Positions 22,563 to 55,174 are shown, counted from the first letter of the stretch. The stretch is DNA of 64,000 bases from a virus (IMGVR_UViG_3300042731_008053), one strand, 5' to 3'. Program-made: numbers and translations. The notes: generated from the sequence alone by a model not told the origin.

Positions 22563-23099
22563 TTGGGTAGACAGTCTCACGGTAACCGTCCAAGACCAAC
22601 CGGGCCTCGCACCAATAGCCGCATCCGTTTTTCGCCGGTCTTCGTTGTCCTCGAAGACGGTACCAAGCTCGGTGTCATGCCAACTGACGACGCGCGCACG
22701 AAAGCAGCCGAGCTGGGACTTGACCTGGTTGAGGTGTCACCCAATGCACGTCCACCTGTCTGTAAGATCATGGACTTTGGTAAGTTCAAGTACGACGAAA
22801 AGAAGCGTAAGAACGAACAGAAAAAACGCCAAGCCAAAGTCGAGTTGAAGATCATCAAGCTGCGCCCAAAAACGGACACGCACGACCTGGCGTTCAAAGC
22901 CAAAGCAGCTCGCAAATTCCTCGAAGCCGGCAACCGGGTCCAGTTTGAAGTGCGATTTCGTGGCCGTGAAAATGCGCATCCCAGAACGGGTCGCGCCGCG
23001 CTCGACAAGTTGATGGCGGACCTGGTCGATGTTGCCAAGCTCGAACGAGCCGCTCGCTACGAAAACCGTGTCATGACGATGCTCGTCGGCCCAAAATAG
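22563..23099 (+). CDS. infC: translation initiation factor IF-3
   Basis: RTNSRIRFSPVFVVLEDGTKLGVMPTDDARTKAAELGLDLVEVSPNARPPVCKIMDFGKFKYDEKKRKNEQKKRQ...VRFRGRENAHPRTG is collinear with bacterial IF3 N- and C-domains. Non-AUG start (TTG) 6 nt after SD GGAAGGAAG, as in other IF3 genes with non-AUG starts. Confidence 0.85.
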   Translation: MGRQSHGNRPRPTGPRTNSRIRFSPVFVVLEDGTKLGVMPTDDARTKAAELGLDLVEVSPNARPPVCKIMDFGKFKYDEKKRKNEQKKRQAKVELKIIKLRPKTDTHDLAFKAKAARKFLEAGNRVQFEVRFRGRENAHPRTGRAALDKLMADLVDVAKLERAARYENRVMTMLVGPK

Positions 23100-23110
23100 G
23101 AGCCCACGCC

Positions 23111-23605
23111 GTGATTGAGATTTTGGTCGATGGTTTTTGGGTGAACGAAGCTGAACACGGCGGTGTTCGTGTTCGGGACGTGTTTCGCACGACAGACGTT
23201 CCTGGCTACGTTAGTCGTGTGACGGCCATTATTCCTGACGGCAATGGTGGTCACGAGATCAAAAGCGTTCCTATCGGGCGCAGCACAAAAAGTATTCCTG
23301 TCGGGCACAGCACAAAAAGTACGCCTCATCAGGATGTGACAGCCAATCGGACACGGCCAAAAACACTGCCGTGGCCTCCGGGTGCAGCCCGTGAGTTCTT
23401 GCTCAAGGTCTCGTGCCTCGCGTACTCCGCATTCCGTAACCTGGAAGTACCGCTGGCTGTTCCTGCACCCTGGGTAAGTCTTGCAACGCATGTCGCATGC
23501 TTAGAGGAAGACGTCCAGCGGCTTGTAGAAAAAGTTAACCGTCTTCATGACGAGCGCGATCACTACCGTGACCTTGTTCTGTCAAACGGTAAGAATGGCG
23601 AGTAG
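23111..23605 (+). CDS. hypothetical protein; contains a 27-bp tandem duplication (23268-23321)
   Basis: GTG start; repeat encodes SVPIGRSTK / SIPVGHSTK. Confidence 0.45.
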   Translation: MIEILVDGFWVNEAEHGGVRVRDVFRTTDVPGYVSRVTAIIPDGNGGHEIKSVPIGRSTKSIPVGHSTKSTPHQDVTANRTRPKTLPWPPGAAREFLLKVSCLAYSAFRNLEVPLAVPAPWVSLATHVACLEEDVQRLVEKVNRLHDERDHYRDLVLSNGKNGE

Positions 23606-23801
23606 GCTCTCCTTCGAGTTTCCTGATTGGCTGGCGGGACGATGGCGTATTAGGCAAGTCACGGATACGTGTTTCTTCATCGAAGTACTGACCGGCAACC
23701 AGCATGGCGATCCTTACTGGGCCCTGAGAGAAGAAGTGCACAAAGAACACGGTTGGAAGTGGTCGTTGTGTGCTGAGCTAACAAAGAACGAATCTGAATG
23801 A
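23595..23801 (+). CDS. hypothetical small protein
   Basis: Internal ATG of ORF 23547-23801. Confidence 0.3.
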   Translation: MASRLSFEFPDWLAGRWRIRQVTDTCFFIEVLTGNQHGDPYWALREEVHKEHGWKWSLCAELTKNESE

Positions 23802-24115
23802 CTGACGACTTATTCCAACAACCATCAACCCCTTTGCCGCTTCCACCAGCACACCATGTCGAATCTGCTGCGTGTCGCCACGGCTGGTCGGCCTACGATG
23901 AGAACGGTAATCCGGTTTGGTTGACGTGCGATTGCGAGGATCCAACGCATCCGTGGTCGCCTCGTTCTGCGACCGATGGGCCGCGCGACTGCGATTGCTA
24001 TCACTGTGGTATCAAGCCTCGTGCAGAGCGTGGTCGCGCGCCGTGCGAGTACGCTGACCACCACTGTCCGTCGTGTCACGAGCGTGGACTGTGCACTGCG
24101 GAGGTATGCAGGTGA
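23798..24115 (+). CDS. hypothetical Cys/His-rich protein
   Basis: ATGA overlap; CDCEDP..CDCYHCG..HHCPSCHERGLC. Confidence 0.4.
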   Translation: MTDDLFQQPSTPLPLPPAHHVESAACRHGWSAYDENGNPVWLTCDCEDPTHPWSPRSATDGPRDCDCYHCGIKPRAERGRAPCEYADHHCPSCHERGLCTAEVCR

Positions 24116-24285
24116 TGGAGGCTGACGTGTGATATACCGTTCGCCCCATATGGAAGTGCATCGTGGCCCCTTATGCTTGTTGTGCCTGTTCGGTTGGCAT
24201 CGCACACATGAAAACGTAGTCTGGGATTGGCCAATACGCACTTCCACGACAATTTGCTGCCGCTGGTGCGGTCGATGGCGCCCTC

Positions 24286-24651
24286 ATGAAACTCGTCCAA
24301 ACAACAAACGACGACATACTGCAACCATTCGATAATGGGCGAGACGATCCTGTTGTCTGGCGCTGCTACAGTTGTGGCAACACCAGTGATGACAAGACGA
24401 CCAACGGTTTCCACCAGGTCACGTACGACACTGCGTGCGGCTATGAGTACGACACTGAATGCGGGGAGTGCGGCAGTCTCAACACGTTCTTTGACGGCGA
24501 AGGCGAGCCCGAGTGCGAAGAGTGCAGCAACCTCGGCTGGTACTGTTACAAGTGCAACAAGAGCAAGTGCGGTGAGTGTTGGACCTGGTTTGTTGTCGAA
24601 AAAGAACCCAAGGATTACGTCTGCCCGGACTGTCAAGGAGTGCCTGAGTAA
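24286..24651 (+). CDS. hypothetical Cys-rich protein (multiple CxxC)
   Basis: ORF track. Confidence 0.45.
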   Translation: MKLVQTTNDDILQPFDNGRDDPVVWRCYSCGNTSDDKTTNGFHQVTYDTACGYEYDTECGECGSLNTFFDGEGEPECEECSNLGWYCYKCNKSKCGECWTWFVVEKEPKDYVCPDCQGVPE

Positions 24652-24879
24652 ATGTCGCGCAGCACCAATGAGCCGATCCGTCCTGCCATTTGTGGCGAAC
24701 CGTTCACGGACAAGCAGGGAGCAGCGTCTAGGTGCCATCGAGAGCCCGGGCACAAACAACCCCACGGATATGGTGGGGACCTTGGTGCTCTACGCTGGTT
24801 CCTTCACTACCTGCCAGCCCGAGATCCGATGCGGCCTTTGGTAGAAAAAACGTGGCGTGATCTCGGACAAGACGCCTGA
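24652..24879 (+). CDS. hypothetical protein
   Basis: Starts directly after the upstream stop. Confidence 0.35.
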   Translation: MSRSTNEPIRPAICGEPFTDKQGAASRCHREPGHKQPHGYGGDLGALRWFLHYLPARDPMRPLVEKTWRDLGQDA

Positions 24880-24883
24880 CTAC

Positions 24884-25369
24884 ATGGCGCGGGTGATCAA
24901 AGATGGCACACTCAAACGCGCGACGCACACGTGTGTCTGGCGCCAGTGTCTTACCCTGGTCACGATAGTGCGTACACGACTCGTCAAGACACCCCAGCAA
25001 TGCGAGGCGCATTACGCTGATGGTAGGGGTACGTGGCAGCGGTGCTCAAACGATGCAACACGGTGGACGTCACACGATGGCGATACCATCGCATACTGCA
25101 AGCGTTGTTTAGGTGGAGTCCGGCGCGACCCGACAATCATGAAGCTCGACCGCGTCTACCACGATCGTGCTCACCCTATCCCGGTAGAACGTGATTGCGT
25201 CAAACGGAAAGCTCAACGCGAAGCGAGTTTGGGATACGCTGAACTCCCCGATGACCTGAAGTGCGGCTGCTGCGGCTACTTTCACGATTGTGGTTTGCCT
25301 GACCGTTGTCTTGACGTGTACTGCCGCCACCCCACGTACTTCCTTGGGGAGCAGCTGTGGCAAAGATAA
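24884..25369 (+). CDS. hypothetical Cys-rich protein
   Basis: Internal ATG of ORF 24857-25369. Confidence 0.4.
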   Translation: MARVIKDGTLKRATHTCVWRQCLTLVTIVRTRLVKTPQQCEAHYADGRGTWQRCSNDATRWTSHDGDTIAYCKRCLGGVRRDPTIMKLDRVYHDRAHPIPVERDCVKRKAQREASLGYAELPDDLKCGCCGYFHDCGLPDRCLDVYCRHPTYFLGEQLWQR

Positions 25370-25731
25370 TCGCTCCTGCATGGACGTGTGTTGTTCCGTG
25401 TGGCGACGAAAAAGTCCTCAGGGTTTCTTCGCGGTTTTTCAAGTTGCTTCAGGACTGGGACGTTCCGTGTTACGCACCCCAAACAGACCCTCCGGGCTTA
25501 CCAATCCACTTTGCGCCTGAGTGGGCCGTCAACACCTACCATGATTGCCGGGCTGCCTTGCAGCGAGCACGTCAATTTGGCCAACCGTTCAGTTACGACG
25601 CAAGCCTAGAGTATGCGTTGAGACGTGCAACCAGAGATCCCGAATTCAGAGCGGCTTTGTGTGCTGCCCTCGCAGTCAAAGGCGGTGCTGCGCGTTTTAT
25701 CAAGGCTCAAATGAAGTCTGCGCCACTCTAG
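25357..25731 (+). CDS. hypothetical protein
   Basis: GTG start overlapping the upstream gene. Confidence 0.4.
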   Translation: MAKIIAPAWTCVVPCGDEKVLRVSSRFFKLLQDWDVPCYAPQTDPPGLPIHFAPEWAVNTYHDCRAALQRARQFGQPFSYDASLEYALRRATRDPEFRAALCAALAVKGGAARFIKAQMKSAPL

Positions 25732-25755
25732 ACGTATGCTATAGTCGCCAAAACC

Positions 25756-26425
25756 ATGAAGACATGCATCGTAGAGATTCGTGCTGCCGAGGGTGGCTCG
25801 GACGCAAAGCAGCTCGTCGAAGAGCAGCTGGCCATCTACACGCGCCTCGCTGCGCGGAGGGGTCTTTAGCCTTGATGTCGTGGACCAGCGTCCTGGTCTT
25901 ATCGTCGCCCACGTGAGTGGCGCAGGCGCCTGGAAGACCTTCCAGCACGAGCCTGGTGGCCACCGCTGGCAACGAGTCCCCAAGACAGAAAAACGCGGAC
26001 GCGTCCATACCAGTACCGTGACGGTCGCTGTGCTAGCTGAGCCAACACAGGTCGAGCTGCGGCTACCTGATCGTGACCTGGAATGGAGTACATGTCGCGG
26101 CTCGGGTGCGGGCGGTCAGCATCGCAACGTCACCAACAGTGCAGTGCAGGTCAAGCACCTACCGACAGGGACTCTCGTGCGCTGCGAATCGGGACGTTCC
26201 CAGCACGCAAATCGGGCAGCGGCGCTCGCACTTCTGCGCGCCAAACTCTGGGATCAGAAACGGTTGTCGGCGGCGAAAGCACGTGCGACAAAACGCAAAG
26301 CACAGGTAGGTTCAGGCCAGCGCGGCGACAAGCGTCGGACGATTCGGGTCCAGGATGGTCGCGTCACGGACCACATTACGGGCCGCTCGTGGCGGTTCAA
26401 GGATTACGTCAGGGGTCTTTGGTAG
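25756..26425 (+). CDS. Truncated class-I peptide chain release factor (PrfH/RF1-like, PKT tripeptide, GGQ) expressed via programmed +1 ribosomal frameshift at CUU UAG C (25864-25870)
   Basis: Frame A: ATG 25756, MKTCIVEIRAAEGGSDAKQLVEEQLAIYTRLAARRGL, then UAG. Frame +1 (frame of ORF 25781-26425) continues SLDVVDQRPGLIVAHVSGAGAWKTFQHEPGGHRWQRVPKTEKRGRVHTSTV...RGSGAGGQHRNVTNSAVQVKHLPTGT..SQHANRAAAL, collinear with RF1 domains 2-4. Shift site GGAGG-GGU-CUU-UAG-C has the same architecture as the E. coli prfB cassette AGGGGG-UAU-CUU-UGA-C. Confidence 0.8.
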
Positions 26426-26439
26426 TAGAATTCTCGTCA

Positions 26440-26838
26440 ATGGTAGACGATTCTATCGACCGTGTTCTGCGAACATGGCGCCACTACATCGACAATAAGG
26501 TCGAACCTGAAGACCTGATTAATACACGTGACTGGCTCGCGTATCGTCATGCTTGCGGTGAGGAATTAGCATCCGAAGAGGCTGCTGTTCTCAGCTCACT
26601 CAACCGCCTATTCAACGTGTTCCTTTCCGACAACACACCGTTGCCTGACGACGTGAAGCGTGCCATGACATCCGTACTCTCTGTGAGTAGTGAGGACGAA
26701 CAGATCGGAGAGCGAACTGTTAGCGAGCGTGACCTTCAACGACGTTACTACGAGACGCTAGAAGGCGAGCAGTCGAAAGAAGACACGCGCAGAGCGCTCG
26801 CTGAGGCGGCTGCCCTACTCAAACACGAAGACGGTTGA
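26440..26838 (+). CDS. hypothetical acidic protein
   Basis: Internal ATG of ORF 26083-26838, just after the RF stop. Confidence 0.45.
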   Translation: MVDDSIDRVLRTWRHYIDNKVEPEDLINTRDWLAYRHACGEELASEEAAVLSSLNRLFNVFLSDNTPLPDDVKRAMTSVLSVSSEDEQIGERTVSERDLQRRYYETLEGEQSKEDTRRALAEAAALLKHEDG

Positions 26839-27211
26839 GCCTGGTTGCACACTCATCGAGAACGTCTGACGCCTGATTGAACGAGTGCGCGACCTCTTCC
26901 AGGTGTTCGGCCTCTTCCTGGCTCTTTTGCGTGTCAGCTTCGTCATCGAGGTTCGACCCTTCTTCGGCCGCTAGCTCAGCTAGTGCTTGTACGATCTCAG
27001 TGTAACTGACGTCGTAGAGAAGTTCCCTGAGACTGTTTTCGAGCGCACGTCGAGACACGGTTCTATGGTACCAAAAACTCGGTCCACGCCGCATGAGTGG
27101 TTGCGGTTGGTTTCCGTAGCCGACGAAGGCAGACGTGGCATTGGTGTTTTGGCTCGGGACGCTTGTAGCTGAGGTCGCGTCCGCAACCAGGACATCGAGA
27201 CATGGTTCCAT
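26819..27211 (-). CDS. hypothetical acidic protein (reverse-strand, convergent)
   Basis: ORF 26819-27244 on the - strand, internal ATG; protein-like composition. Uncertain versus the + strand alternatives. Confidence 0.3.
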   Translation of the reverse strand: MEPCLDVLVADATSATSVPSQNTNATSAFVGYGNQPQPLMRRGPSFWYHRTVSRRALENSLRELLYDVSYTEIVQALAELAAEEGSNLDDEADTQKSQEEAEHLEEVAHSFNQASDVLDECATRLNRLRV

Positions 27212-27252
27212 GATACTGCATGTGGTAACGCCTGGAAAGTACACTAGCTTTT

Positions 27253-27268
27253 GATCGCGTCTGCGATC
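27253..27268. promoter_or_regulatory. Operator-like palindrome GATCGCGTCTGCGATC (copy 3 of 4)
   Basis: GATCGC-N4-GCGATC 24 bp upstream of ATG 27292, followed by GATATTGTCGATAT. Confidence 0.45.
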
Positions 27269-27291
27269 GACCTCCGTGATATTGTCGATAT

Positions 27292-27762
27292 ATGGCTCTT
27301 ACCGTAGCTCTCGTTGAACGCACTCCCAACCGTTTGCGGTATCTCGTCACTTCCGACGGTGGCGCAGGAGCGGCGCCTGATGTCACGGGGATCACCAATC
27401 GTCTGGCGGGCGGCGTTGCTGGCTCAGATCTCAACGTCGATTCGCTCGTCGTGAACGGCTCCCCGATCCAGCAGCTCGTGAGTACTCCTGTCGCCACTAC
27501 GGCAGCGGCTCGGACTCTCTTCGGCGATGGGCTCACGGCCGTGACGGACATCGACACGCCGCGTGGGCACATCAGTGTGCGGAACCGCAACTCGTTTGCG
27601 ATTGTATTGGCGACAGCGTCTTTGTGGTCAGCTGACGCCGTCGAAGGCAGTACGATCGATCCTGCCTCGGCAGGTCGCGTTGCGATCGTCATCAGCGGAC
27701 CCAATGTTGCGAACGCGGCATGTTACGTCGATCTCGTCTTCCAACACACCTACGATCGGTAG
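27292..27762 (+). CDS. hypothetical protein (Ala/Gly/Thr/Val-rich, possibly beta-rich structural)
   Basis: ORF track. Confidence 0.5.
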   Translation: MALTVALVERTPNRLRYLVTSDGGAGAAPDVTGITNRLAGGVAGSDLNVDSLVVNGSPIQQLVSTPVATTAAARTLFGDGLTAVTDIDTPRGHISVRNRNSFAIVLATASLWSADAVEGSTIDPASAGRVAIVISGPNVANAACYVDLVFQHTYDR

Positions 27763-27780
27763 CGCTGCTATACTCGGGCC

Positions 27781-28368
27781 GTGAGCAACCACCAGCTCAT
27801 GGCGAGCGAGATCCTCACCGTTCGGGTCCAAACACTCGGTAACTACCAGTGGAAAGACTACCGGAACCTGATCGGCTTTGCGTCGGGAATTGCGCACGTC
27901 GGTCACGACAAGCTTTTGGCGAAGCTAAAGGATGCGCGCCACCTCTTAGACAGTATTGAGCTACACAGCGTTCAGGTTGTGGGTACACGTCTTGAACAGT
28001 TTGCGTTGGGGCCTCCGTGGGATGCATCTACCGATAGCTGGTCCGACAAGCTCCTGCCCGAGTTGGCGGAATTGCGCCGTGGCCGCAACAGTTTTGAGGC
28101 ACGAGGCGGTCGTAACGCAGGTACGTGGGCACTCAAAGGCGGAGTTGCTGCTGTCATCGAAACAGTCACCAAGGGAGCTTCCCCAAAAGGCTCTCTCGAC
28201 TCGCTGATTCTTGGCGCCATAGCCGCTGACATTGACCGTGAAACGATTGGAAAAATCGCTCGCCCGTGGCGAATTCGAGACGGCAACCCTGACGCCGATG
28301 AAGCCCTGGCCTTTGAAGCCGCAATGAGCGTCGATCGAGCCTATGCGTATCGGTTGTTCGATCGTTAG
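27781..28368 (+). CDS. hypothetical protein
   Basis: ORF track, GTG start; last gene of the + block. Confidence 0.5.
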   Translation: MSNHQLMASEILTVRVQTLGNYQWKDYRNLIGFASGIAHVGHDKLLAKLKDARHLLDSIELHSVQVVGTRLEQFALGPPWDASTDSWSDKLLPELAELRRGRNSFEARGGRNAGTWALKGGVAAVIETVTKGASPKGSLDSLILGAIAADIDRETIGKIARPWRIRDGNPDADEALAFEAAMSVDRAYAYRLFDR

Positions 28369-28571
28369 TTGACGTCTTCGTCAGATCGTCGTGGTGGAAC
28401 CGATGCGTTGTCGAGTTCCCAGTCACCGGCCTTTGTTCGACTAACTCCGGGTCGTTGCGCAGCGCCTCGTAGGCTTCTTGCCCCAGCTGCCTTCTTCTTC
28501 GGCCCTGCGGCCTTGGCTTTGGATTTGGTGGCAGACTTGGAAGTCTTGGTGGAAGTACGGGGCATTCTCAA
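28365..28571 (-). CDS. small basic Lys/Ala-rich protein (histone-H1-like, nucleic-acid binding candidate)
   Basis: Start overlaps the dnaG stop; [23 protein letters not shown]. Confidence 0.45.
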
Positions 28572-30430
28572 TCGACCTGCCTTCTAGTAATCAAAATCTC
28601 GCGAACGAGTTTGCGTTCGAGTTCGACGTCGCCTCGCCGTTTTGCCGTCTGGGCTTCGCGCTTGAGAGCCGCCAACTTGGCGCGCTGCAACCGCTTGAGG
28701 CCGCCGATCGCTTCGATGAGACAATGCTTGGGGTCCTTAACATCTGCATATGCTCCAGCGAGCATTTGTTTGGCTACCAGGGCGCTGAGATCCTCGGGCC
28801 ACTCGCTGGGATTGGACAGATAAGATCGATTCTGACGTGCGGCGCAATACATGTCCCGAAGCCGCTCATCCGTCAAGAGGGAAAAAACACTATTCTGTTC
28901 GGCCGTTTCCCTCAATTGCGGGTGCTCGGCCAGGATCGCCAACAAGGCCAGCTCGTCGAGGTCGGGCGGGGGAGCCGCAGGGGCGGCAGGGGCGGCAGGG
29001 GCCCGGGACACGGGGCGTTGCTGTTGTTTTTGCTCGGAATTGCGCTGGCCTCGGGCTCGCGAGAGGCTCCGTTGTACCACTTGCGGGGGTATATTCAAGG
29101 CTTTGGCAAGGATGCCTACGACTAGATCTCGTTTGGTCGGGTTTCTGATGGCCAGAATGACGCTGGCAGCCTCGCTCAGCACTTGAGCCTGGCTGTGGTC
29201 CGAGCCGGTGTTCTTGCCCCAGATTTCGTACGCAAAATACTGAATACCGCCCTGGGCGCGTTCGAGCATCTCGCCGAACTTGTCCGGTCTGAGGCGTTTG
29301 ACCAGGGTATCGGGGTCGTCGCCGGGCGGCACGACCACAATGCGCACGTCCACGTCGGCCGCCACGAGCACGCGCAGGGCCTTGAGCGTCGCCGCCTGGC
29401 CGGCCTTGTCGCCGTCGTACATGAGCACGACCTTGTCGGCGAGCCGGCGCAGCTGATCGGCTTGTTCGCGGGTGAGCGCGGTGCCCAGAGGCGCCACGGT
29501 CTCGGCGAAGCCGGCCTCGTGCAGCGCCATGACGTCGAAGTTGCCTTCGACCAGCACCGCGCGCTTGCGCTTGCGGAACGCGTCGCGAGCCGCGTGCAGA
29601 CCGAACAGCAGGCGCGACTTTTTGTACACCGGGCTCTCGGGGGAGTTGATGTATTTGGCGCCCGCTTTGTCGTCGTCGCCCGAGCCGAGCCGGCGGCCGG
29701 AGAACCCGGCAATCTCACCGCCGGGCAACACGATGGGACACATCAGGCGGTCGCGGAAGCGATCGTAGTGGCCCTCGGACTTGCGCGGCACGACCAGACC
29801 GAGGGTCTCGGCCAAATGCATCGGCACGCGCTTGTGTGCGAGGTAGTCCGTCAACGTGCTCCAGCTATCGGGTGCTAGGCCCAATTGGAAGGTCTCCGCT
29901 ACGGTGTCGCCAATCCCCCTGTCGGCGAGGTAGCGCCGTCCGGCGCTGCCGTGGTCGGAACATAATTGCCGACGATAGAACTCCGTCGCCAGTTTATTGA
30001 CGCGCAGAAGCTGGACGCGTTCGTCGCGCTGCCGGCGCACGTGCTCGGGCTCTTCGGTGCGCTCGATGACGATGCCGAGCTGTCCGGCCAGGCTCTCGGC
30101 GGCCTCGACGAAGCTCTTGCCCTCGTACTCCATCACGAACGAAAACACGTCGCCCTTTTTGTGGCAGCCGAAACAGTAAAAGAAGCCCTTGGTGCCGTTG
30201 ACGTTGAACGACGGCGTGTTCTCGTTGTGAAACGGGCACAGCCCCTTGTGGTTCTGCCCAGCCTTGCGCAGCTGAACGTGCCGGCCGATGACGGCGACGA
30301 TGTCCGATCGCTTGCGGATCTCGCCGATTACATTGTCAGGGATTAGGCCCATATGCCCCACGTGCGTGCGGGTCCTTGCCTTCGGCGTGCGCCATGCGCC
30401 GACATTGCCGCAACGCGGCCGGCAAAGCAA
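28568..30430 (-). CDS. dnaG: DNA primase DnaG (bacterial type: zinc-binding, TOPRIM and C-terminal helicase-interaction domains)
   Basis: [13 protein letters not shown]...[14 protein letters not shown] zinc ribbon; [14 protein letters not shown] and [19 protein letters not shown] motifs; [12 protein letters not shown] linker before the C-terminal domain. Confidence 0.9.
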
Positions 30431-30460
30431 GCGGTCAGGGCTGCAGTCGTCGAACGAGTT

Positions 30461-30676
30461 TCAGTGTCCGCTTTTGGGCTCGCTGGCACCAAACAACGTA
30501 TTCGCCGCAGCTTGGTGCAGTGCCATGACTTCGGCGTCTTCGATGTCGTAGACGTCGTTGCTGCCGCAGAAAGGGCACGTTGTTCGGTTTACGTGATTGT
30601 GTTGACGTCGCTGCTCAGCATTGTCACCACCAAACCATTTGAAGCTGTACCAACGGTTGACGCGTTGACGCGGCAT
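30461..30676 (-). CDS. hypothetical zinc-ribbon protein
   Basis: ORF track; CPFCGS. Confidence 0.4.
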   Translation of the reverse strand: MPRQRVNRWYSFKWFGGDNAEQRRQHNHVNRTTCPFCGSNDVYDIEDAEVMALHQAAANTLFGASEPKSGH

Positions 30677-30804
30677 TTTGTTTTGTTGAGTTCCATGATT
30701 ACTGGCTGGAGTGTACCGTCTCGGGATTACAGGCCCGAGCGCCTTCTATCGATTGTAGGACGATTCTTCCGGCGCCAGGAAAATGCGGTAGTAGCCGGGC
30801 TCAG

Positions 30805-31020: not shown

Positions 31021-31023
31021 CAG

Positions 31024-46583: not shown

Positions 46584-46605
46584 TCGTCCTGCCGTCTACA
46601 GCACG

Positions 46606-46890: not shown

Positions 46891-46893
46891 GCT

Positions 46894-47241: not shown

Positions 47242-47545
47242 GAGCGTATCGTATCACAGCGCCTGAAAAGTCTGTGTGGGCGCCCCCGATGGGTGGTCGA
47301 GGGCGCCGGGGTGAGCAGTGTTGCCAACCGGGCAGGTGGGCAGCCGGATCACCGTCGGCCAGTACAGGTCTACCAAATTTGTACTACTTGACGCAAATAA
47401 ATCCCCCGCAACACCCCGAAAGGCGTTCACAACCCGTTGCTTTGTTGTAGTACTTCAGCGTAAGCTGGGCTGTCAAAAAAGTGCGGCGACACGCTAGAGA
47501 CGCATCGCCGCGAAGCCCACAAACCTGATCGGAGGTCGTGAACTG

Positions 47546-48484
47546 ATGTTTGATTCCACCAAATTTTTGCGCCGAATGCGAGCCCTCGTTTGGGCTTTTT
47601 CTGGGTTCTTTGTATCAGCTTGCGGAGGCGTCCAGGACGCCCCTAGCGACGCAGGGCTTGACGCTCCCGTCGTTGACGGCTGGACGACACAAACGCCTGA
47701 CGGCCCGCGTACGGATGCTGTGATGCCCGACGCAGGCGTGCAGCCCCTCACGGCGTGGGGCGACCCCGAACTGATCACCGAGATTAGCTCGACTACGCTC
47801 CACGACTTCAAACCCACCGTACGTGGTGACCTGCTCGAATTGTACTTGTATCGACCAGGCACCGTGCAGGAAGGCGGCCAGCAGGTCTTCCGTTCTATCC
47901 GAACAACAACAGACGAGCCGTGGCAACCTACAACGGTAAGTGGGTTGGGCAACCAGGGTACACCCGAGCTGTCCTATGACGGCACCGAGATGTTCGTGGT
48001 GCGCAGCACAGATGAAGTATGGACCAGTGTGCGACTTACTGTAGAAGCAAACTGGAGCGCCTTTATGTTCGTGTTCAACGGCCAATCACCGTCGTTGTCA
48101 GGTGATGGCCTGACCCTGTATTACGTGGACGCCGTTACTCATGAGACCATGAAACGTACGCGCACAGCAATTGGAGGGACGTGGGGCGGCGCCGTCAACG
48201 CAGGCTTACCGGGAAACCCACGCTACGCGGCTGCTGCAGTTTCGCCGGACGAACGCGTGTTCGTGCTTTCCGGTCCCGATGACATGGGTCAAGCCTTCAA
48301 TGTCGAATTCAAGCGCGAAACGATCGGCGACGCGTGGGACAACGCACAAGAAGTGCAACCGCTCACCTCAGCCGGAGGAGGCAACTGCAACTTGGCCACA
48401 GCCTATGAGATGTATTGTGGCATGGTGAATCCGGGCAGCGGCCTTGCAGACGTGTACAGGCTTCGGCGCCTACCGGCTCAGTAA
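47546..48484 (+). CDS. secreted lipoprotein, possibly beta-propeller (TolB/PD40-like repeats)
   Basis: Signal peptide ending in lipobox VSAC-GG; repeated DG.E.FVVRS / DGLTLYYVD / DERVFVLSGP motifs. Confidence 0.55.
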   Translation: MFDSTKFLRRMRALVWAFSGFFVSACGGVQDAPSDAGLDAPVVDGWTTQTPDGPRTDAVMPDAGVQPLTAWGDPELITEISSTTLHDFKPTVRGDLLELYLYRPGTVQEGGQQVFRSIRTTTDEPWQPTTVSGLGNQGTPELSYDGTEMFVVRSTDEVWTSVRLTVEANWSAFMFVFNGQSPSLSGDGLTLYYVDAVTHETMKRTRTAIGGTWGGAVNAGLPGNPRYAAAAVSPDERVFVLSGPDDMGQAFNVEFKRETIGDAWDNAQEVQPLTSAGGGNCNLATAYEMYCGMVNPGSGLADVYRLRRLPAQ

Positions 48485-48495
48485 CACAGCCGCGA

Positions 48496-49011
48496 TCAAA
48501 TCAGGTAGGTCGGCGTGCAGACATAATACCGACGCCGCATTTCACCAACATCCTTAGGCATCTTGATGTTGTTCTTCCGCATGAATTCATCGCGTGCCGC
48601 TTCATCGGGAAACACAACCGTCAACGTCGTGTTGCCCTGAAAACGTGCTGCGTCCGCACTGTAGCGCTCTGCTTCGAGTGCACGACCCTCGGCGATGAAG
48701 TTGCGAAACTCCAACGCAAGTTCTTTGTACGCCGGATCTGCGGTCGGCAGTTCATCGAGGACGTGTGACAGCGTCTCCAGCTGCTCATACGGCCAGCCAC
48801 GAACGGTACGAGGGTCAAGGTTACCGGTCGCAAATTTAACGACTGGCAACGCTGCGTTGAACGCTTCCAGCACGCGCGCAATACGGCCCTCGGGGTCGGC
48901 GAGGTGTGCCTTCTCCAGACGTTTTTCCAAATCCGTCGCACGCTCCAATGCAACATCTCGCTGGCGTTGAAACTCCTGAAACTCTTCGATACTCATCTTG
49001 ATCTCAGCCAC
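48496..49011 (-). CDS. hypothetical protein
   Basis: ORF track. Confidence 0.5.
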   Translation of the reverse strand: MAEIKMSIEEFQEFQRQRDVALERATDLEKRLEKAHLADPEGRIARVLEAFNAALPVVKFATGNLDPRTVRGWPYEQLETLSHVLDELPTADPAYKELALEFRNFIAEGRALEAERYSADAARFQGNTTLTVVFPDEAARDEFMRKNNIKMPKDVGEMRRRYYVCTPTYLI

Positions 49012-49021
49012 GAAGCGCTCC

Positions 49022-49432
49022 TCACTTGAGTCCGAAAATGTCGTCGCCGCTGTCTTTAGCGGCTAACTCCTCAGTAGGTTTGCCAGCACTAGCGTTACTG
49101 TCAGCATCAGCTGCAGGTTCGGCGGTTTCAGCCGTGCCGTCAGCGTCGTTGACGTTCGCAGCATTGATTTTTTGGAGCAGCTCCTCACGTTCCTTTGTGG
49201 TCGCCTCCAGGTAATGCGCTTCTTGTTGAACCAGAGGCAAGATGCCTTGAACGCGTTGCGCAACCTGAATAGCGAGTTGCTCCAAAGCAGGCGGAGGTGT
49301 TGCGTTCAGCTCCGCGAAGGTCGCGGCAACCTGACTGAGAAGCTGCAATTCGAGTTGGGCAATGGCGAACGTCTCGACAACCATAATGCCGATACGATCG
49401 AGCCGAACGGTAAGCTGATCAATAGGGTCCAT
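49022..49432 (-). CDS. hypothetical acidic protein
   Basis: Internal ATG of ORF 49022-49486. Confidence 0.4.
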   Translation of the reverse strand: MDPIDQLTVRLDRIGIMVVETFAIAQLELQLLSQVAATFAELNATPPPALEQLAIQVAQRVQGILPLVQQEAHYLEATTKEREELLQKINAANVNDADGTAETAEPAADADSNASAGKPTEELAAKDSGDDIFGLK

Positions 49433-49779
49433 TAGTTGTTTCCTCCAAGAAGGTTTTCGGCTAGCTGACACGCATCGCAGGAGCACGGACCACTGAGGGG
49501 GAAACGGTATCGATGATTGCGCAGCATAGCCGCCAGGGCCCCGCGCAGTTCCTCGGTCTCAGACAATACAGCCTCGTCGATCAGCTTCTGGATGGCCGAT
49601 GTTGCTGCCTGTGCAGCCTCGTCGGTTGAGTCCTCAGCATAAATAGCGTCGGTGAGATCCAGGATCCGTCCGACCGTGATCGACTGCTTTTCCACGTCTT
49701 CTACCGTAGCATTCAAGCAGGTAAACTCCCTATGGATTCTTGGGTCAGGCACGTGTCGGGTAAAAAGAGTCGCTGGCAA
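49432..49779 (-). CDS. hypothetical protein
   Basis: ORF track. Confidence 0.4.
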   Translation of the reverse strand: MPATLFTRHVPDPRIHREFTCLNATVEDVEKQSITVGRILDLTDAIYAEDSTDEAAQAATSAIQKLIDEAVLSETEELRGALAAMLRNHRYRFPLSGPCSCDACQLAENLLGGNN

Positions 49780-51496
49780 AGTAAAGGTTGTTGCGCTTCT
49801 CGACTAGCTTGTTCGATGTCAGTGCAGACAAATAGTTAGCGAACGTAGAGGACCGCGTCGAATGTCCAGCGGCCTCTGCAATTTCATTTCGACCCATTCC
49901 CTGGGGATAACACTCAACGAGCAGCCTGAGCATCGTCTTGGCGTTTCCCGGCAGTTTGGGTAACCACAACTCCAGCAATCGTTGAGTCGTCATGACGGGT
50001 ACAGTGTCGCGACCACCGACTGCATCAAGACCTGTTTTGGTCAGGACGTAAGGCGCGTTTCGGCCGCCGTCAATGTATCCGGCCGTACGCAACGTCGAAA
50101 GGTAGTTGTTGAACGTGCTCGACTTGATGCTGAAACCCGACAAGGTGGACACCTGGCTACGTGTCAACGGGGTGGGGTGCAAAGACGCAATGGCCATGAG
50201 GATCTTGGTTGGGCCGCTTCCCAATCCGTTGGGCTTAGGTGTTGAGGACGCAACGCTAGTTTCGACTGTTGGTGATGGCGCTGGAGGTTTTGCGACACCG
50301 TTAGAGCGTTTGGGGACTGCGGAACTACGCGGCGGTGTCGATGTCGATGAAGGTGAGCCCAGTTGCACGCCGGCCTCATGCAGGGCGCTGCGGATCGACA
50401 TGATTGTGTCCTGAACGACCTGACCCATTCCGTGCAACCTGTCTATCGCGTGCTTGAACTGACGCATCTGATCGTCGGTAATCACTGGGACCGCTACCTG
50501 CTCGACGTCAGTGACACGAGTTGCAAGCTCGTTCTTCAGTCGAGACACAGTAGCCTGCGCCGACGACAAGAGTTTGCGAAGGTGCTGCGGATCGCGTTGT
50601 TTTGCTGCCTCAATGGTTTCAGCCATCGCCGCCGACATGGCGTCCAGATCGATCTTGGCGAGCTTTCGCTTGGGCTGTTTGGTGCCAGCTTTTGGTGTCG
50701 CTGAGGTATCGGCTGTGCGCTTTTTGGCGATTTTCACGCGGCCGTAAAAATCAAGCCACTGAGGGCTCCACACGATAGCAGTGCCCGTCGGCAGCTTCGT
50801 AATCACAGCCGCGTCCGCGTCGTGGATTCCCTTATCAGCGATCCACTCTTTGATCGCCTTGCGCTCGTGTGGACCTGTCATCTGGAAGGCGAACAAACAC
50901 TCCGTCTGATTCAGGACGTCCTTGTTGACCTTCTGCGGACGTTGCGAAATGAGCGACACGCCAATGCCGTAATTGCGGCCCATCAACGTCAAATCGCTCA
51001 CGGCGCCAAGCAGACGCTCATCGCCGCCAAGCACTCGCTGTGGAACGAAGTGTTGCGCTTCGTCGATGATCACGTGCAGGGCCGAAGGGGCGTCTTTCTT
51101 TTTGTGGAACAACTCTTCAGCGAAATCGACGACGAACCGTTTGCGGTCGTTTTTGCGAAACCGGCTGAGATCGATGACCATCGACGTGCCCGTTTTGACG
51201 ACAAAATCCGCTACGACGGTACCGCCCGTCGGTTCGAGCGGAATATCTCCGTTGGCGCCACCGAGCACGGGGATCGAGTAGCCGGGCTTGCCGTTTTCGA
51301 GTGTACGTAAGCCCCACCAGTTTCCTACGGGGTCCAAAACAACAACCTGAGTACCAATATCAAGAAGCTCTTCAGCGAGCTTTCCGCACGCATAGGTCTT
51401 GCCGCTACCTCTGCGTCCCATAAACGCGAACGTCTGGGTGACAGCGTCGGTCGGAAGCTTCAGGTTTCGTGCAAGATTAATGGTTCTCTTCTTCAT
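49745..51496 (-). CDS. FtsK/HerA/VirB4-superfamily P-loop ATPase (DUF87/AAA_10-like) with two C-terminal winged-helix repeats
   Basis: FAFMGRRGSGKTYACGKL (Walker A) followed by VVVLDPVGNWWGL; HVIIDEAQHF (Walker B); two repeats of ...TRSQVSTLSGFSIKSSTFNNYLSTLRTAGYI / ...GRNEIAEAAGHSTRSSTFANYLSALTSNKLV (wHTH-like). Confidence 0.65.
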   Translation of the reverse strand: MKKRTINLARNLKLPTDAVTQTFAFMGRRGSGKTYACGKLAEELLDIGTQVVVLDPVGNWWGLRTLENGKPGYSIPVLGGANGDIPLEPTGGTVVADFVVKTGTSMVIDLSRFRKNDRKRFVVDFAEELFHKKKDAPSALHVIIDEAQHFVPQRVLGGDERLLGAVSDLTLMGRNYGIGVSLISQRPQKVNKDVLNQTECLFAFQMTGPHERKAIKEWIADKGIHDADAAVITKLPTGTAIVWSPQWLDFYGRVKIAKKRTADTSATPKAGTKQPKRKLAKIDLDAMSAAMAETIEAAKQRDPQHLRKLLSSAQATVSRLKNELATRVTDVEQVAVPVITDDQMRQFKHAIDRLHGMGQVVQDTIMSIRSALHEAGVQLGSPSSTSTPPRSSAVPKRSNGVAKPPAPSPTVETSVASSTPKPNGLGSGPTKILMAIASLHPTPLTRSQVSTLSGFSIKSSTFNNYLSTLRTAGYIDGGRNAPYVLTKTGLDAVGGRDTVPVMTTQRLLELWLPKLPGNAKTMLRLLVECYPQGMGRNEIAEAAGHSTRSSTFANYLSALTSNKLVEKRNNLYFASDSFYPTRA

Positions 51497-51533
51497 GCCT
51501 TGCGGCTGACCATAACCCGTCGGTGTGACAGAT

Positions 51534-52025
51534 CTAGTCGTAGGTGCCGAAGTCGGGCATGTTGGTCTCGACGATCAAATCGTCAGCAGCGGAGGTGAGA
51601 CTGCGTTTTACGTCTGTCGTTGTGGCAGGAAACGGGCCGGTTAGACGCAAAATGGCCCACGCAGGTTCTGCGCCGAAAAGCGTTTCGTCGAGCTGATCGA
51701 TAGCGTCCCAGTCGCCCTGACCGGTGAACTCCAAACAGACGATACCCGCTTCGTCACCCAACTGGCGGCCGATCGCATCGCCGCCAGGAGACATGATCAA
51801 CCAGTGCAGTGCCAGCTCCTCGTAACCGCTCTTCAACGCGCGGTAGTACATCAACGACTCGAAAAACGGCCGCTCGAAAAGCCACAACCGCGAAATCACA
51901 TGATCGACATCGCAGCTCTCTTCGTGTTTACCAAAAAGCTGAGCGAGTGGGTGAACGATCCCCTTTCGGTAGTCGTTCACGATCCACTCGGCTGCGCTGA
52001 AACCAGATCCCCATGATGTGGTCAT
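51534..52025 (-). CDS. hypothetical protein
   Basis: Internal ATG of ORF 51534-52061. Confidence 0.4.
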   Translation of the reverse strand: MTTSWGSGFSAAEWIVNDYRKGIVHPLAQLFGKHEESCDVDHVISRLWLFERPFFESLMYYRALKSGYEELALHWLIMSPGGDAIGRQLGDEAGIVCLEFTGQGDWDAIDQLDETLFGAEPAWAILRLTGPFPATTTDVKRSLTSAADDLIVETNMPDFGTYD

Positions 52026-52987
52026 TACGCCAACCCGTATGAGTAGTTGATCGAAAGGCAATCTTCGATGCCCTCAAACCAGATGTGACCGCGCTCGGGG
52101 ATGTGCGCCGCGTCGCCCCATTCCCGCGAACCCGTGAAGACGTCGAAGTGTGCACCGTAGATGCCTCCGCCCGTGTCGTTCACGGTGAACCAACCATCGT
52201 GCACAGTCCCGTCCGGCAACGTCTTGCCGACGAACTCCAGAATGAAGACCTTGGTGCCGGCCGGAACGACGCCACCCTTCCCTTTGAACGAAGGATCGTG
52301 GTGACGCATCCGGCCGTTGTCGGCCGCCAGCGAACGGAACGGATCCATTGGAATGCCTTTGGCCTCCACAGGGTAACCGGTCTCGGGTGACGCAGGCTTT
52401 TCATAGAACCGTCGTGCAGCATCGACGCCGCTTTGGTCAGGTGTGAGCGACACACCGCCCCAATTCGGTTTGTGGAGCCAGCCGTTGGCCTTGATAATCG
52501 AATACACCCCGGTCCAGTCGCTTGGATCAACGGAGATGTAAGAACCATCAGCGACGTTGATCAAACGGCCGTCCCGAAGCTTGGTTGTTCCTTCAAGGGC
52601 AGCCTCGACGAAACAACCAGCCTCGACAGTAGCGATCACGCTGCCGTCAGAACCGAACATCGGATACGCCTCGGGACCGCTCCACCGCGACTGGTCGCCG
52701 ATGTAGTAGTAGGTGAGCTGCCAACGGCGCATCGATTTGATGTCCACACCGGCAGCCGTCAGATCACACTCTGCCTGCTTGAACTTGTCCACGAGCGGCA
52801 GCAGTGCACTCTCAGACTTGGGGCCGTACCACCCATCCGCCGCGCCGGCTTTGGAGCGATAATCGCGCTGGAACTTCTTCAAGTCTGTCCGAAATTCAGG
52901 CTCCATGTAGTTGCCGTCGATGGGCCCGTCGTAGTATCCGAAACGGGCCAACCACTCCTGGACTTCAGTGATGCTCAGCTGTGTCAT
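52025..52987 (-). CDS. cell-wall hydrolase candidate: N-terminal peptidoglycan-binding domain (PG_binding_1) plus C-terminal 3D-domain (MltA-like) lytic transglycosylase; endolysin candidate
   Basis: VQEWLARFGYYDGPIDGNYMEPEFRTDLKKFQRDY (PG_binding_1 pattern); DTGGGIYGAHFDVFTGS (3D-domain signature). Confidence 0.7.
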   Translation of the reverse strand: MTQLSITEVQEWLARFGYYDGPIDGNYMEPEFRTDLKKFQRDYRSKAGAADGWYGPKSESALLPLVDKFKQAECDLTAAGVDIKSMRRWQLTYYYIGDQSRWSGPEAYPMFGSDGSVIATVEAGCFVEAALEGTTKLRDGRLINVADGSYISVDPSDWTGVYSIIKANGWLHKPNWGGVSLTPDQSGVDAARRFYEKPASPETGYPVEAKGIPMDPFRSLAADNGRMRHHDPSFKGKGGVVPAGTKVFILEFVGKTLPDGTVHDGWFTVNDTGGGIYGAHFDVFTGSREWGDAAHIPERGHIWFEGIEDCLSINYSYGLA

Positions 52988-53016
52988 TTGGGTCTCCTTG
53001 TCAGGGGGTCTACTGG

Positions 53017-53105
53017 GTGCCGACCGGGGTGCCGACCGGGGGTGCCGACCGGGGGTGCCGACCGGGGGTGCCGACCGGGGGTGCCGACCGGGGTGCCGAC
53101 CGGGG
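53017..53105. repeat. 7 tandem copies of a 12-13-nt unit TGCCGACCGGGG(G), flanked by GGTCTAC(T) direct/inverted repeats (53006, 53146-53184)
   Basis: Read directly from the sequence, in the intergenic gap upstream of the lysin gene. The + strand ORFs over it translate to ADRGCRPG repeats and are spurious. Confidence 0.85.
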
Positions 53106-53183
53106 TCGTGTGGGTCTAAGGGCGTTCACCGCATAAAGGCAGCCGTGGTAGACCTGCCCGGTCTACTGTCCGGTCTACGTCTA

Positions 53184-53393
53184 CTAGAACGTCGTGCCAC
53201 ACTGTGGACAGGTCGAAAAATCGGTCGTTTGTACATGACCGCAGACTCCACAGCGGTACTTCTCGCGTGCGGGCGTAGGCGTAACAAGTCCGGCGGCCTT
53301 CGCAGCCAGATAATTGGGACAGTAGCGTAGATGGGCACGCACTGATTGTTTGTTCTGAAACCAACGCTGACAAAAACCACATCGACGCGACAC
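53184..53393 (-). CDS. hypothetical double zinc-ribbon protein
   Basis: CGFCQ...CPNY...CGVCGH...CPQCG. Confidence 0.45.
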   Translation of the reverse strand: MSRRCGFCQRWFQNKQSVRAHLRYCPNYLAAKAAGLVTPTPAREKYRCGVCGHVQTTDFSTCPQCGTTF

Positions 53394-53774
53394 CTATTGC
53401 TCGTCTCCTGTTTTGATGCGTGGTGCGTTCGCGGCGTAGATCGCCTGCATGATCGTTTGCGCGGCCCGTTGGATCAGCGCCGGACGGTTATCGGGGTCTT
53501 GAAGCAGTCCGAAGAACCGCTTCCACGGTAAAAGGCCCAGCGAAACGAGGCGACGTGGCGCCACCACAAGGATATACGGTACGGGGTGATCGGAATCATT
53601 TTGTAGAATGATTTTGGTACGGTACGTGCGAGCGATGTGGAGGTGTGTCGGCTGGCGAGTAATCACAACGGGCTGCTCGTGATCACCTAGCGGCTTTTCG
53701 ATCGTAACTACGATCGCGTCTTGTGGCGGCACGATGCCAAAGGCTGGCGTCCGCATCGTACCGGAGTGGTTCAT
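53394..53774 (-). CDS. hypothetical protein
   Basis: ORF track. Confidence 0.4.
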   Translation of the reverse strand: MNHSGTMRTPAFGIVPPQDAIVVTIEKPLGDHEQPVVITRQPTHLHIARTYRTKIILQNDSDHPVPYILVVAPRRLVSLGLLPWKRFFGLLQDPDNRPALIQRAAQTIMQAIYAANAPRIKTGDEQ

Positions 53775-54163
53775 GCACTTTCGGGAGGTAAGTCGCCAGA
53801 ATCTGCCGCACCGTAATCCTCAACCTCAACGACGTTTTCAGGGAGAGCGGGCCGCGAGAAGTGTACTACGTTATTGGGCGGAAAGACCTCATCAGGAGGC
53901 GGCTGAGACGGCTCTGTCTTCGCCTTTTTTGTTGATTTCTTTGCGGTCTTCTTGGCGTTCGAGGCCTTCTTGTTGTCTTCGGGTTTTCCCGTGACCCCTA
54001 ACGCCTTCGCTCGGGTGATCAAAAACGAGACTCCGACGCCCAATAACGGCGCTGCCGCACGAAGCGATCCAGCTTGCTGCACCGCGTATTCGATCATCTG
54101 TTTCTCTACGTGACGAAGCGTCCGTTCGTACGCCGAGTTTTCATTCTTTTTCCGTCGAGCCAT
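53771..54163 (-). CDS. Fis-family HTH DNA-binding protein with Lys-rich tail
   Basis: LRHVEKQMIEYAVQQAGSLRAAAPLLGVGVSFLITRAKALG matches the Fis/HTH_8 C-terminal helix-turn-helix; followed by a KKASNAKKTAKKSTKKAK tail. Confidence 0.55.
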   Translation of the reverse strand: MARRKKNENSAYERTLRHVEKQMIEYAVQQAGSLRAAAPLLGVGVSFLITRAKALGVTGKPEDNKKASNAKKTAKKSTKKAKTEPSQPPPDEVFPPNNVVHFSRPALPENVVEVEDYGAADSGDLPPESA

Positions 54164-54497
54164 CGTCCTCCTCCGGGGCTGGACCCGTGTAATCAAAAGC
54201 CCGCAAATGAATTGCGGCTACAAGAGGGGTCCACACGATCGAGCACAATGCGATCACGAATGGTGTTACCCAAAGGCGTCCGGGGAGACCTAAAAAGGGC
54301 AGATCACGCCACCATCCGATCGAAAAACCGATAGCCAGGCCGTACCAGAAGCCAGAGCACGCTGTGCACATCATGAAGTTGTCGAGCCATTTTGGGTACC
54401 TCGACCATAACCATTGGGTGATCTTGGCGCGCACTCCCAGGTAGTACAGCGACGTCGTCAGGAGAGCGTAAAGGACAGGAACAGCGAAAACACTCAT
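54141..54497 (-). CDS. small membrane protein with CxxC (DUF1360-like, tentative)
   Basis: 3 TM segments; MCTACSGFWYGLAIGF. Confidence 0.45.
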   Translation of the reverse strand: MSVFAVPVLYALLTTSLYYLGVRAKITQWLWSRYPKWLDNFMMCTACSGFWYGLAIGFSIGWWRDLPFLGLPGRLWVTPFVIALCSIVWTPLVAAIHLRAFDYTGPAPEEDDGSTEKE

Positions 54498-55174
54498 CGG
54501 GCTGATCGCTTTCTCCGCCGTGAGCCTTGCTGTTTGGGACGACGGTCCAGACGCCGACGGAACTTGGCCATCTTCTTTTCGATCATTTGTTGTTTGAGTC
54601 CTGCCGTATGATCGATAAGAAGGCCACCGTCGAGGTGTTCGATCTCATGGCAGAGCGCACGCGCGAGAAATCCGTAGGCTTTGATCTCGAAAGCGTCACC
54701 GGCTGGTGTACATGCGCCAACATGAACCCAAACCGGACGCGGCACACGTACCCATACTTTGGGAAACGACAAGCAGCCTTCTCGATCCAGGACAACGTCC
54801 TCGGAGCGGTCCATGATTTTGGGATTGATCAACCCAAACGGGTAACCTTGGGTGAGATTATCTGCGACGTCGCCGGAGACGACCACGACGCGCTCGGTGA
54901 TGCCCACCTGAGGTGCGGCGATGGCGGCGCCGTCATGTCGATCGAGGGCTGCTGCTAGAAAGCGCAGGCCTTGGCGCAGTGTGCTGTGGTCGTCATTGCC
55001 AAAGGCGTCGGACTCGACAGACGTGCATACCTTGCGCAGCCGCGCGTCTCCAAAGACAAGCACGGCCGGGACCGCCTCAGGCGGCAACGCGCCCCAACCG
55101 TAGATCGGCTCGGGCGTCCCCATGATCAGTTTTGAGCGTGGCAGGGGGTTTGTGTTGGCGTCGTCGAGACTCAC
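54494..55174 (-). CDS. def: peptide deformylase
   Basis: Motifs GAAIAAPQVG (motif I), EGCLSFP (motif II), HEIEHLDGGL (motif III). About 40-aa N-terminal extension. Confidence 0.85.
   Translation of the reverse strand: MSLDDANTNPLPRSKLIMGTPEPIYGWGALPPEAVPAVLVFGDARLRKVCTSVESDAFGNDDHSTLRQGLRFLAAALDRHDGAAIAAPQVGITERVVVVSGDVADNLTQGYPFGLINPKIMDRSEDVVLDREGCLSFPKVWVRVPRPVWVHVGACTPAGDAFEIKAYGFLARALCHEIEHLDGGLLIDHTAGLKQQMIEKKMAKFRRRLDRRPKQQGSRRRKRSAR

Follow-up and report, generated by a model that had tools for sequence, protein, structure and literature searches.

Introduction

The frameshift of prfB, the gene for release factor 2 (RF2), is the textbook case of a gene that senses its own product by recoding. 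The prfB cassette consists of four elements, i.e., a Shine-Dalgarno (SD)-like tract, a CTT codon, an in-frame stop codon, and a following C, and across 8,164 genomes, TGA accounts for 98.6%, TAA for 1.4%, and TAG for none of the internal stop codons (PMC12421855). For prfA, the gene for release factor 1 (RF1), no evidence of programmed frameshifting has been found (PMC12421855), and every CUU-stop entry in RECODE is prfB (PMC10885494). PrfH (RFH) is a class-I release factor paralogue of about 200–220 amino acids (aa) without domain 1; its decoding region is divergent, and its gene is always located after an rtcB-like gene (PMC1586002). Domain 1 is dispensable for peptide release and codon specificity, but is required for coupling to RF3 (Baranov 2006, PMC1586002, citing Mora 2003). 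Lastly, large phage genomes have been reported to carry IF3, peptide deformylase (PDF), and RF1/RF2 (Al-Shayeb et al. 2020, PMC7162821); therefore, it is not new that an element carries translation factors. That paper mentions neither a frameshift in a release factor gene nor the loss of domain 1.

Here, we describe a short release factor gene on a stretch of 64,000 nucleotides (nt) from a virus (IMGVR_UViG_3300042731_008053). The whole stretch is called the window, and all coordinates are counted from its first letter. The gene contains a cassette like that of prfB within a reading frame for an RF1-type factor without domain 1, which is called RF1deltaN. On balance, we favor the view that the window belongs to a large phage-like element with genes for IF3, PDF, and a frameshift-gated RF1deltaN, that the slip is tied to termination, and that self-regulation is possible in the window element.

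A frameshift cassette in a short release factor gene

The gene consists of the following features.

25756..25869, plus strand: frame-0 part of the short release factor gene, ATG, 37 codons (MKTCIVEIRAAEGGSDAKQLVEEQLAIYTRLAARRGL), then TAG; matched by the hidden Markov model (HMM) of the family
25856..25870, plus strand: +1 frameshift cassette GGAGG GGT CTT TAG C (SD-like tract, 3-nt spacer, slippery CTT_T, stop codon, 3′ C)
25868..26425, plus strand: +1-frame part, 185 aa, with PKT decoding loop, GGQ, and domains 2–4; Pfam PCRF (C-terminal part) and RF-1 domain

A preliminary description of the window had listed a frameshifted release factor at 25756–26425, and this assignment was confirmed. 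Frame 0 extends from ATG 25756 to the TAG at 25867–69, and the remainder of the release factor is encoded in the +1 frame from 25868 to 26425. The sequence reads ATG 25756 ... CGG AGG GGT CTT TAG C, with GGAGG at 25856–25860, CTT TAG at 25864–25869, and the C, a weak context for termination, at 25870. All four elements of the prfB cassette are present, and the SD-like tract ends 6 nt before the stop codon. The pattern GGAGGNNNCTTTRR was found once in the window (25856–25869), while 0.05 occurrences were expected by chance. The closest relative (81% identity), on the metagenomic contig L166, has an identical cassette site.

The likeness to prfB comprises the SD-like GGAGG 6 nt before the stop codon, the CUU codon at the P-site, the in-frame stop codon, the 3′ C, and the fact that a class-I release factor is encoded. 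There are three differences. First, the site is located at codons 37/38 in domain 2 (residues ~121–122 of Thermotoga maritima RF1), whereas it is located at codon 26 in domain 1 in prfB. Second, the product is of the RF1 type and lacks domain 1. Third, the stop codon is TAG in the window and TGA, TAG, or TAA across the family of short release factors. The different site in the protein indicates that the two cassettes are of independent origin. No published description of a frameshift in a short RF1-type gene was found in the literature, and judged from the sequence, the frameshift is apparently a conserved, undescribed variant of the known prfB mechanism. As the gene reads, RF1deltaN could not be made by ordinary decoding. 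The preliminary description had mentioned the frameshift as a passing attribute of the gene. Its presence was correct, but it is not incidental, because the site is conserved in 143 of 161 loci (see below).

The product is an RF1-type factor without domain 1

Joining of the two frames after the CTT codon yields a product of 222 aa, which aligns without a gap across the junction with residues 88–309 of T. maritima RF1 (AARRGL|SLDVVD versus AERKGWNLEVAE). The matches of this product in the PDB were RF1 (1e-46), RF2 (1e-27), and PrfH (1e-12; phmmer). The decoding residues of RF1 are kept (WQRVPKTE..GRVHTS, i.e., Q, PKT, and HTS), as is the GGQ motif. The NCBIfam models yielded 224 bits for prfA (cutoff 400) and 81.5 bits for prfH/TIGR03072 (cutoff 166.65). 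The match to the prfA model covers only positions 104–316 of 347, and the short release factor lacks domain 1 (about 110 N-terminal residues) and the C-terminal tail of RF1, which explains why its score is below the equivalog cutoff of prfA. An open reading frame (ORF) for domain 1 was not found upstream of the gene, and the ORF at 25357–25731, upstream of it, has no Pfam match.

An AlphaFold model was obtained with a predicted local distance difference test (pLDDT) score of 81.7. In this model, the junction is located in a confident loop between a helix (15–34) and a strand (38–45), and the frame-0 segment contributes one strand and one helix to domain 2. A Foldseek search with the model returned RF1 structures, with a template modeling (TM) score of 0.82 to free RF1 (1rq0). 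The frame-0 segment aligns to the region of RF1 that reads U1.

In summary, the short release factor shares with canonical RF1 the PxT loop (PKT), the Q and HTS residues, GGQ, and the fold of domains 2–4, and differs from it by the missing domain 1, the missing C-terminal tail, and the frameshift, which is not reported for prfA. It resembles PrfH in being a class-I paralogue of similar length without domain 1. However, its decoding residues are RF1-like instead of divergent, and it has no conserved neighbor, whereas PrfH invariably follows an rtcB-like gene. The gene had been described as PrfH/RF1-like. The RF1 part of this label is supported by the prfA score and the PDB match to RF1, whereas the prfH score is only about half of its cutoff. 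An identity with PrfH was ruled out by the HMM score, the RF1-like decoding residues, and the absence of an rtcB neighbor. As truncated RF1 releases peptides without domain 1 (PMC1586002), the product would plausibly be an active terminator that is independent of RF3.

The site is conserved across a family

An initial protein search yielded thousands of matches to the release factor family, and the top 120 were short (about 170–240 aa). Their coverage of the query is 100% in some cases and about 84% in others, the latter corresponding to the +1 ORF by itself. Loci were gathered with an alignment of 18 members, i.e., 80 of 387 IMG/VR relatives, mostly on contigs of 50–620 kb, and 80 of 143 relatives from GTDB species genomes. 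Together with the window, 161 loci were parsed with the HMM and found to encode 137 distinct frameshifted products. The loci fell into four groups.

+1 shift needed: 144/161 loci, of which 143 share the codon position of the CTT-stop
Uninterrupted: 7/161 loci
Single in-frame stop codon in place of the shift: 7/161 loci
Cut by the contig end: 3/161 loci

The frame-0 segment (33–37 aa) is conserved at the protein level and was matched by the family HMM in 151 of the 161 loci. Positions −12 to −7 are CGGAGG in 74 of the 137 distinct products, an exact GGAGG is located three bases before the CTT in 81, and 109 have a purine core of at least 4 nt at this distance. The stop codon is followed by C in 112 and by G in 22 cases. 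The internal stop codon is TGA in 92, TAG in 41, and TAA in 4 products, and TAA is the gene's own terminal stop codon in 63 of the 137 family members. AGG is a rare arginine codon in GC-rich genomes; its dominance at the site therefore points to selection on the nucleotides themselves.

In the seven variants with an in-frame stop codon (L004, 3001–3678; L007, 3001–3663; L069; L070; L075; L147; and L152), both halves are in the same frame and are separated by one stop codon. In L004 (..HGL TGA CTG..) and L007 (..KGY TAG ATG..), this stop codon is located exactly at the frameshift position of the other family members, and there is no SD-like tract. Four other variants have TGA CTx a few codons further downstream. 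The variants may represent read-through, a recoded stop codon, or a split gene. A crude comparison of ORF lengths did not separate recoded from ordinary genomes for these variants.

What the cassette may sense

We propose the following mechanism, which is modeled on prfB. Translation would begin at ATG 25756 and proceed over 37 codons until the ribosome arrives at CTT TAG C. The GGAGG before this site has the spacing of prfB, where the tract pairs with the tail of the 16S rRNA and shifts the P-site tRNA-Leu from CUU to UUU. A +1 slip on CTT_T would give rise to the 222-aa protein, which contains all decoding residues of RF1 (Q-R-V-P-K-T...H-T-S) as well as GGQ. As in prfB, slippage is expected to compete with termination at the internal stop codon; thus, the factor would be made when termination at UAG is slow, and its synthesis would be shut off when termination is fast. 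By analogy, we infer that synthesis is tied to the termination capacity. In the window, a UAG stop codon is paired with an RF1-type PKT product, and because UAG is RF1-specific, the loop could close on itself as negative autoregulation. Self-regulation at UAG is therefore plausible for the window element, and given this combination of stop codon and product, a closed negative-feedback loop would be its simplest reading. Since domain 1 is missing, peptide release by the factor is expected not to depend on RF3, and this may be why its dose needs to be limited.

Several observations weigh against this proposal. ATG 25756 has no obvious SD motif of its own, and an SD-like tract is missing from 16 of the 137 distinct products. 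Across the family, the RF1-type loops are combined with TGA in 92 of the 137 products, and there is no covariation between the stop codon and the decoding tripeptide (PPT, 50 TGA and 21 TAG; PPN, 27 TGA and 9 TAG). When the stop codon was compared with the other columns of the protein alignment, the only associated column was the codon that is created by the shift itself. In addition, the stop codon flips between nearly identical pairs, i.e., between L103 (TGA) and L106 (TAG), which are 96% identical, and between L125 and L132, which are 90% identical. Self-regulation is thus not a general rule of the family, because an RF1-specific product could not autoregulate the TGA majority, and it may be inapplicable to the window element as well. 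Across the whole family, the cassette may also do no more than set a fixed expression level. With regard to the element, genes for a capsid, a portal, or a classical terminase were not found in the 64-kb window, and therefore, the label "phage" rests on the gene architecture and the IMG/VR relatives.

The free exchange of the stop codon would also make sense if the cassette sensed the release factors of the host instead of its own product, i.e., a shortage of RF1 in the case of TAG or of RF2 in the case of TGA, and if the short factor were a back-up terminator that is induced by a drop in host termination capacity, e.g., late in infection or under stress. All three stop codons are used, roughly as expected for GC-rich genomes, and the switching between close relatives without covariation with the protein fits this explanation. 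However, an RF1-type back-up would not relieve an RF2 shortage that is signaled by TGA, unless the factor reads UGA. We regard sensing of host factors as rather unlikely, though it deserves to be kept in mind.

The difficulty with TGA would disappear if the short factor were omnipotent and read UAA, UAG, and UGA, because any stop codon in the cassette would then lead to true autoregulation. The interchangeability of TGA, TAG, and TAA at the site is in agreement with this idea, as is the unusual tripeptide PPT/PPN, compared with PAT/PVT of canonical RF1, which is followed by basic residues (TEKRGR). In contrast, the Q, PxT, and HTS residues behind the UAA/UAG specificity of RF1 are conserved, and the ratio of TGA to TAG is the same for PPN and PPT, which makes omnipotence improbable. 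It would be equally speculative to assume a third kind of class-I release factor in Myxococcota and large phages, which would lack domain 1, be independent of RF3, read all stop codons, limit itself via a convergent prfB-like frameshift (in a few phages via read-through), and serve a takeover of termination.

The window is most likely part of a phage-like element

The window has an overall GC content of 57% and contains about 105 short and tightly packed genes, with TGA as stop codon in 61, TAG in 27, and TAA in 17 cases, as predicted with our own rough gene caller. No tRNAs and no Rfam families were found in a scan of the 64 kb. Family matches were obtained for only a few of about 50 ORFs scanned, including the following.

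28568–30430: DnaG-type primase
Window ORF: HNH nuclease
7489–10134, plus strand: MVP-like protein, 881 aa; full-length Major Vault Protein (MVP) shoulder domain (5.5e-26) and vault repeat (7.6e-11)

The MVP-like protein is a side observation; it is encoded by a phage-like element.

The preliminary description had placed the translation genes among element genes and had suggested a check of their codon usage. The element-borne reading was supported. The neighbors of infC, the release factor gene, and def have no Pfam family, and the bacterial operon partners are absent, i.e., thrS, rpmI, and rplT are not found beside infC, nor is fmt found beside def. The GC content at third codon positions (GC3) is 0.63 for IF3, 0.63 for the release factor, and 0.64 for PDF, equal to the window mean of 0.636 ± 0.05, while it is 0.86–0.94 for the Myxococcota chromosomal copies of the short release factor. 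The region from 15.7 to 26.4 kb, which includes IF3 and the release factor, is collinear with the 39-kb contig L166, and synteny was also found with contigs of 50 and 90 kb (see below). The element-like codon composition, the neighbors without families, the missing operon partners, and the synteny with metagenomic contigs indicate that the genes for IF3, PDF, and the release factor are long-term residents of a mobile, phage-like lineage, and not of a chromosome. The general claim that large phages encode translation factors is in accord with the literature (PMC7162821). The genes for IF3 and PDF appear to be intact and adapted to the element, and their products probably sustain initiation and N-terminal processing during infection. 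That the combination of factors reshapes initiation fidelity, termination, and N-terminal processing, as the preliminary description had suggested, is speculative.

The large phage-like mobile element to which the window belongs most likely infects Myxococcota. Myxococcota is the label of 54 of the 80 genome loci, and 7 more are labeled "Deltaproteobacteria", and the nearest named relatives of IF3 are from Kofleriaceae and Nannocystaceae. A comparison of 30 window ORFs and ten neighbors of ATPase homologues with PHROGs retrieved only the primase, the HNH nuclease, a lysin-like protein, and weak tail hits. In tblastn searches of cultured phages with the primase and the ATPase as queries, identities did not exceed 39%, and the matches to the primase all covered less than 80% of it.

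The short release factor also occurs in bacteria. Minicystis rosea and Archangium gephyra are represented among the genome loci by closed chromosomes, and the frameshifted form is resident in these two species as well as in a Kofleriaceae and a Nannocystaceae genome (L084, L099, L100, and L143). The chromosomal Myxococcota copies are located among ordinary genes, with the GC3 of the host and with unrelated neighbors. No conserved operon partner was found; an all-against-all BLAST of the flanking ORFs of the 161 loci retrieved the release factor and its shadow ORFs alone. Viral and genomic short release factors are partly interleaved (16 of 143 nearest neighbors are from the other source), and that of the window is 63–66% identical to its best viral and its best genomic matches alike. 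This argues for repeated exchange between Myxococcota and large phages, and not for a single recent capture. A two-piece match to the frameshifted short release factor (55% identity) was also found in a huge-phage genome of 485 kb from Al-Shayeb et al. (LR745208.1, 63468–64122; locus H1). This record carries no annotation.

The closest cellular relatives of IF3 and the release factor are all from Myxococcota, and the short release factor does occur among ordinary genes on their chromosomes. One might thus assume that the window is bacterial chromosome, with infC, a prfA-like gene, and def belonging to the host itself. However, the GC content of 57% and the GC3 of 0.64 differ from the GC3 of 0.86–0.94 on those chromosomes, the window genes are short, dense, and mostly without known relatives, operon partners are missing, contigs of 39–90 kb of a like kind are syntenic, and the identity to cellular homologues is only 65–70%. 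A chromosomal origin of the window is thus very unlikely.

Gene callers annotate the C-terminal ORF alone (P0001, 214 aa; P0002, 181 aa), but the idea of a pseudogene or of a sequencing error behind the interruption, with this ORF (from GTG 25781 or 25880) as the real or a defunct gene, can be dismissed, because the +1 site recurs in 143 independent loci of various samples and phyla, the frame-0 segment of 33–37 aa is conserved as protein and forms a strand and a helix of domain 2 in the model, and the closest relative has the identical site.

The IF3 gene and its start codon

22548..22556, plus strand: SD-like GGAAGGAAG, 6 nt 5′ of the IF3 start, read from the sequence
22563..23099, plus strand: infC-like gene for IF3, 178 aa, TTG start; Pfam IF3_N and IF3_C at full length, NCBIfam infC 195.8 bits (cutoff 60)

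The preliminary description had placed IF3 at 22563–23099 with a TTG start after an SD motif, in agreement with the full-length domain matches, the infC score above the cutoff, and the SD-like motif 6 nt upstream. TTG 22563 is the sole ATG, GTG, or TTG between the upstream in-frame stop codon (22539–41) and the conserved N-terminal tail RPRPTGPR, a basic tail that is kept in homologues of 178 aa. The closest relative, on L166 (IF3 at about 9916–10453), carries CTG in the corresponding position, preceded by GGAAAGGAA with unchanged spacing. A 200-kb IMG/VR relative starts with ATG, and the tail-keeping database relatives have 32 ATG (M) and 3 TTG (L) starts. Named cellular relatives from Kofleriaceae and Nannocystaceae are 67–70% identical.

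It had also been claimed that this start mirrors the autoregulatory start of bacterial infC. The non-AUG start codon behind a good SD motif (TTG in the window, CTG in the closest relative) is indeed reminiscent of the AUU start of E. coli infC. However, UUG is a canonical start codon in E. coli and is not known to be discriminated against by IF3, and the start of the window gene is thus outside the class that IF3 discriminates against (AUU, AUC, CUG, and similar codons). Furthermore, 32 of the 35 tail-keeping relatives use AUG, and the thrS-infC-rpmI-rplT context is absent in the window. The parallel to infC autoregulation is therefore weak and not established. Because CTG is combined with an equally spaced SD motif in the closest relative, a weak IF3 start may be a trait of the sub-lineage of the window and L166. 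The ORF directly 5′ of infC (21999–22541, plus strand) has a weak match below the cutoff to a MazG-like nucleotide pyrophosphohydrolase (E = 0.009).

Peptide deformylase and its conserved neighborhood

54494..55174, minus strand: def-like gene for PDF, 226 aa from GTG (209 aa from an internal ATG), with a basic C-terminal tail; Pfam and TIGR00079
49745..58202, no strand assigned: conserved block around def, in the same order in L168 (90-kb contig) and L169 (50-kb contig)
49745–51496, def block: HerA/DUF87 ATPase (Pfam)
52025–52987, def block: PG_binding_1+3D lysin-like protein (Pfam)
53771–54196, def block: HTH_50 protein (Pfam)
55740–58202, def block: 820-aa Gln/Pro-rich coiled-coil protein

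The assignment of a PDF to 54494–55174 was verified, with 116.8 bits for Pfam Pep_deformylase and 105.8 bits for TIGR00079, just above the cutoff of 103.95. In the translation, the catalytic motifs IAAPQ, EGCLS, and HEIEH are all kept. Six closer relatives are 48–65% identical and are followed by generic bacterial PDFs at about 40–45%; no donor clade could be named.

On the 50- and 90-kb contigs, the order of the def block is 820-aa protein, small ORF, def, small ORF, HTH_50, lysin-like protein, and HerA ATPase. The HerA-type ATPase has a partial match to a "terminase" PHROG (3.5e-18), and its relatives on 11 IMG/VR contigs of 20–408 kb are 34–39% identical on ten contigs and 29% identical on the eleventh. 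The protein may serve the lineage as its packaging ATPase.

The preliminary description had also mentioned an S21-sized basic protein, without coordinates. An S21-like gene was not found. Ten small basic ORFs, chosen by us as candidates, had no Ribosomal_S21 match in Pfam at E ≤ 1, and tblastn of the window with S21 from E. coli and from B. subtilis yielded noise only.

Implications for release factors and large phages

The slip-at-stop device was known until now only from the bacterial RF2 gene, and the reading frames described here suggest that it is also present in a shortened RF1. The prfB cassette would thus have arisen a second time, in an RF1-type gene and with any of the three stop codons, and the family of short release factors can be viewed as a natural experiment on what the cassette actually senses. 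Its members also represent a natural and widespread "RF1 without domain 1", which is open to a direct test of RF3 independence. Short release factors are systematically truncated by gene callers, so that products of 181–214 aa are found in the databases. For the biology of phages, the results suggest that large phages both monitor the termination capacity and supplement it as a resource.

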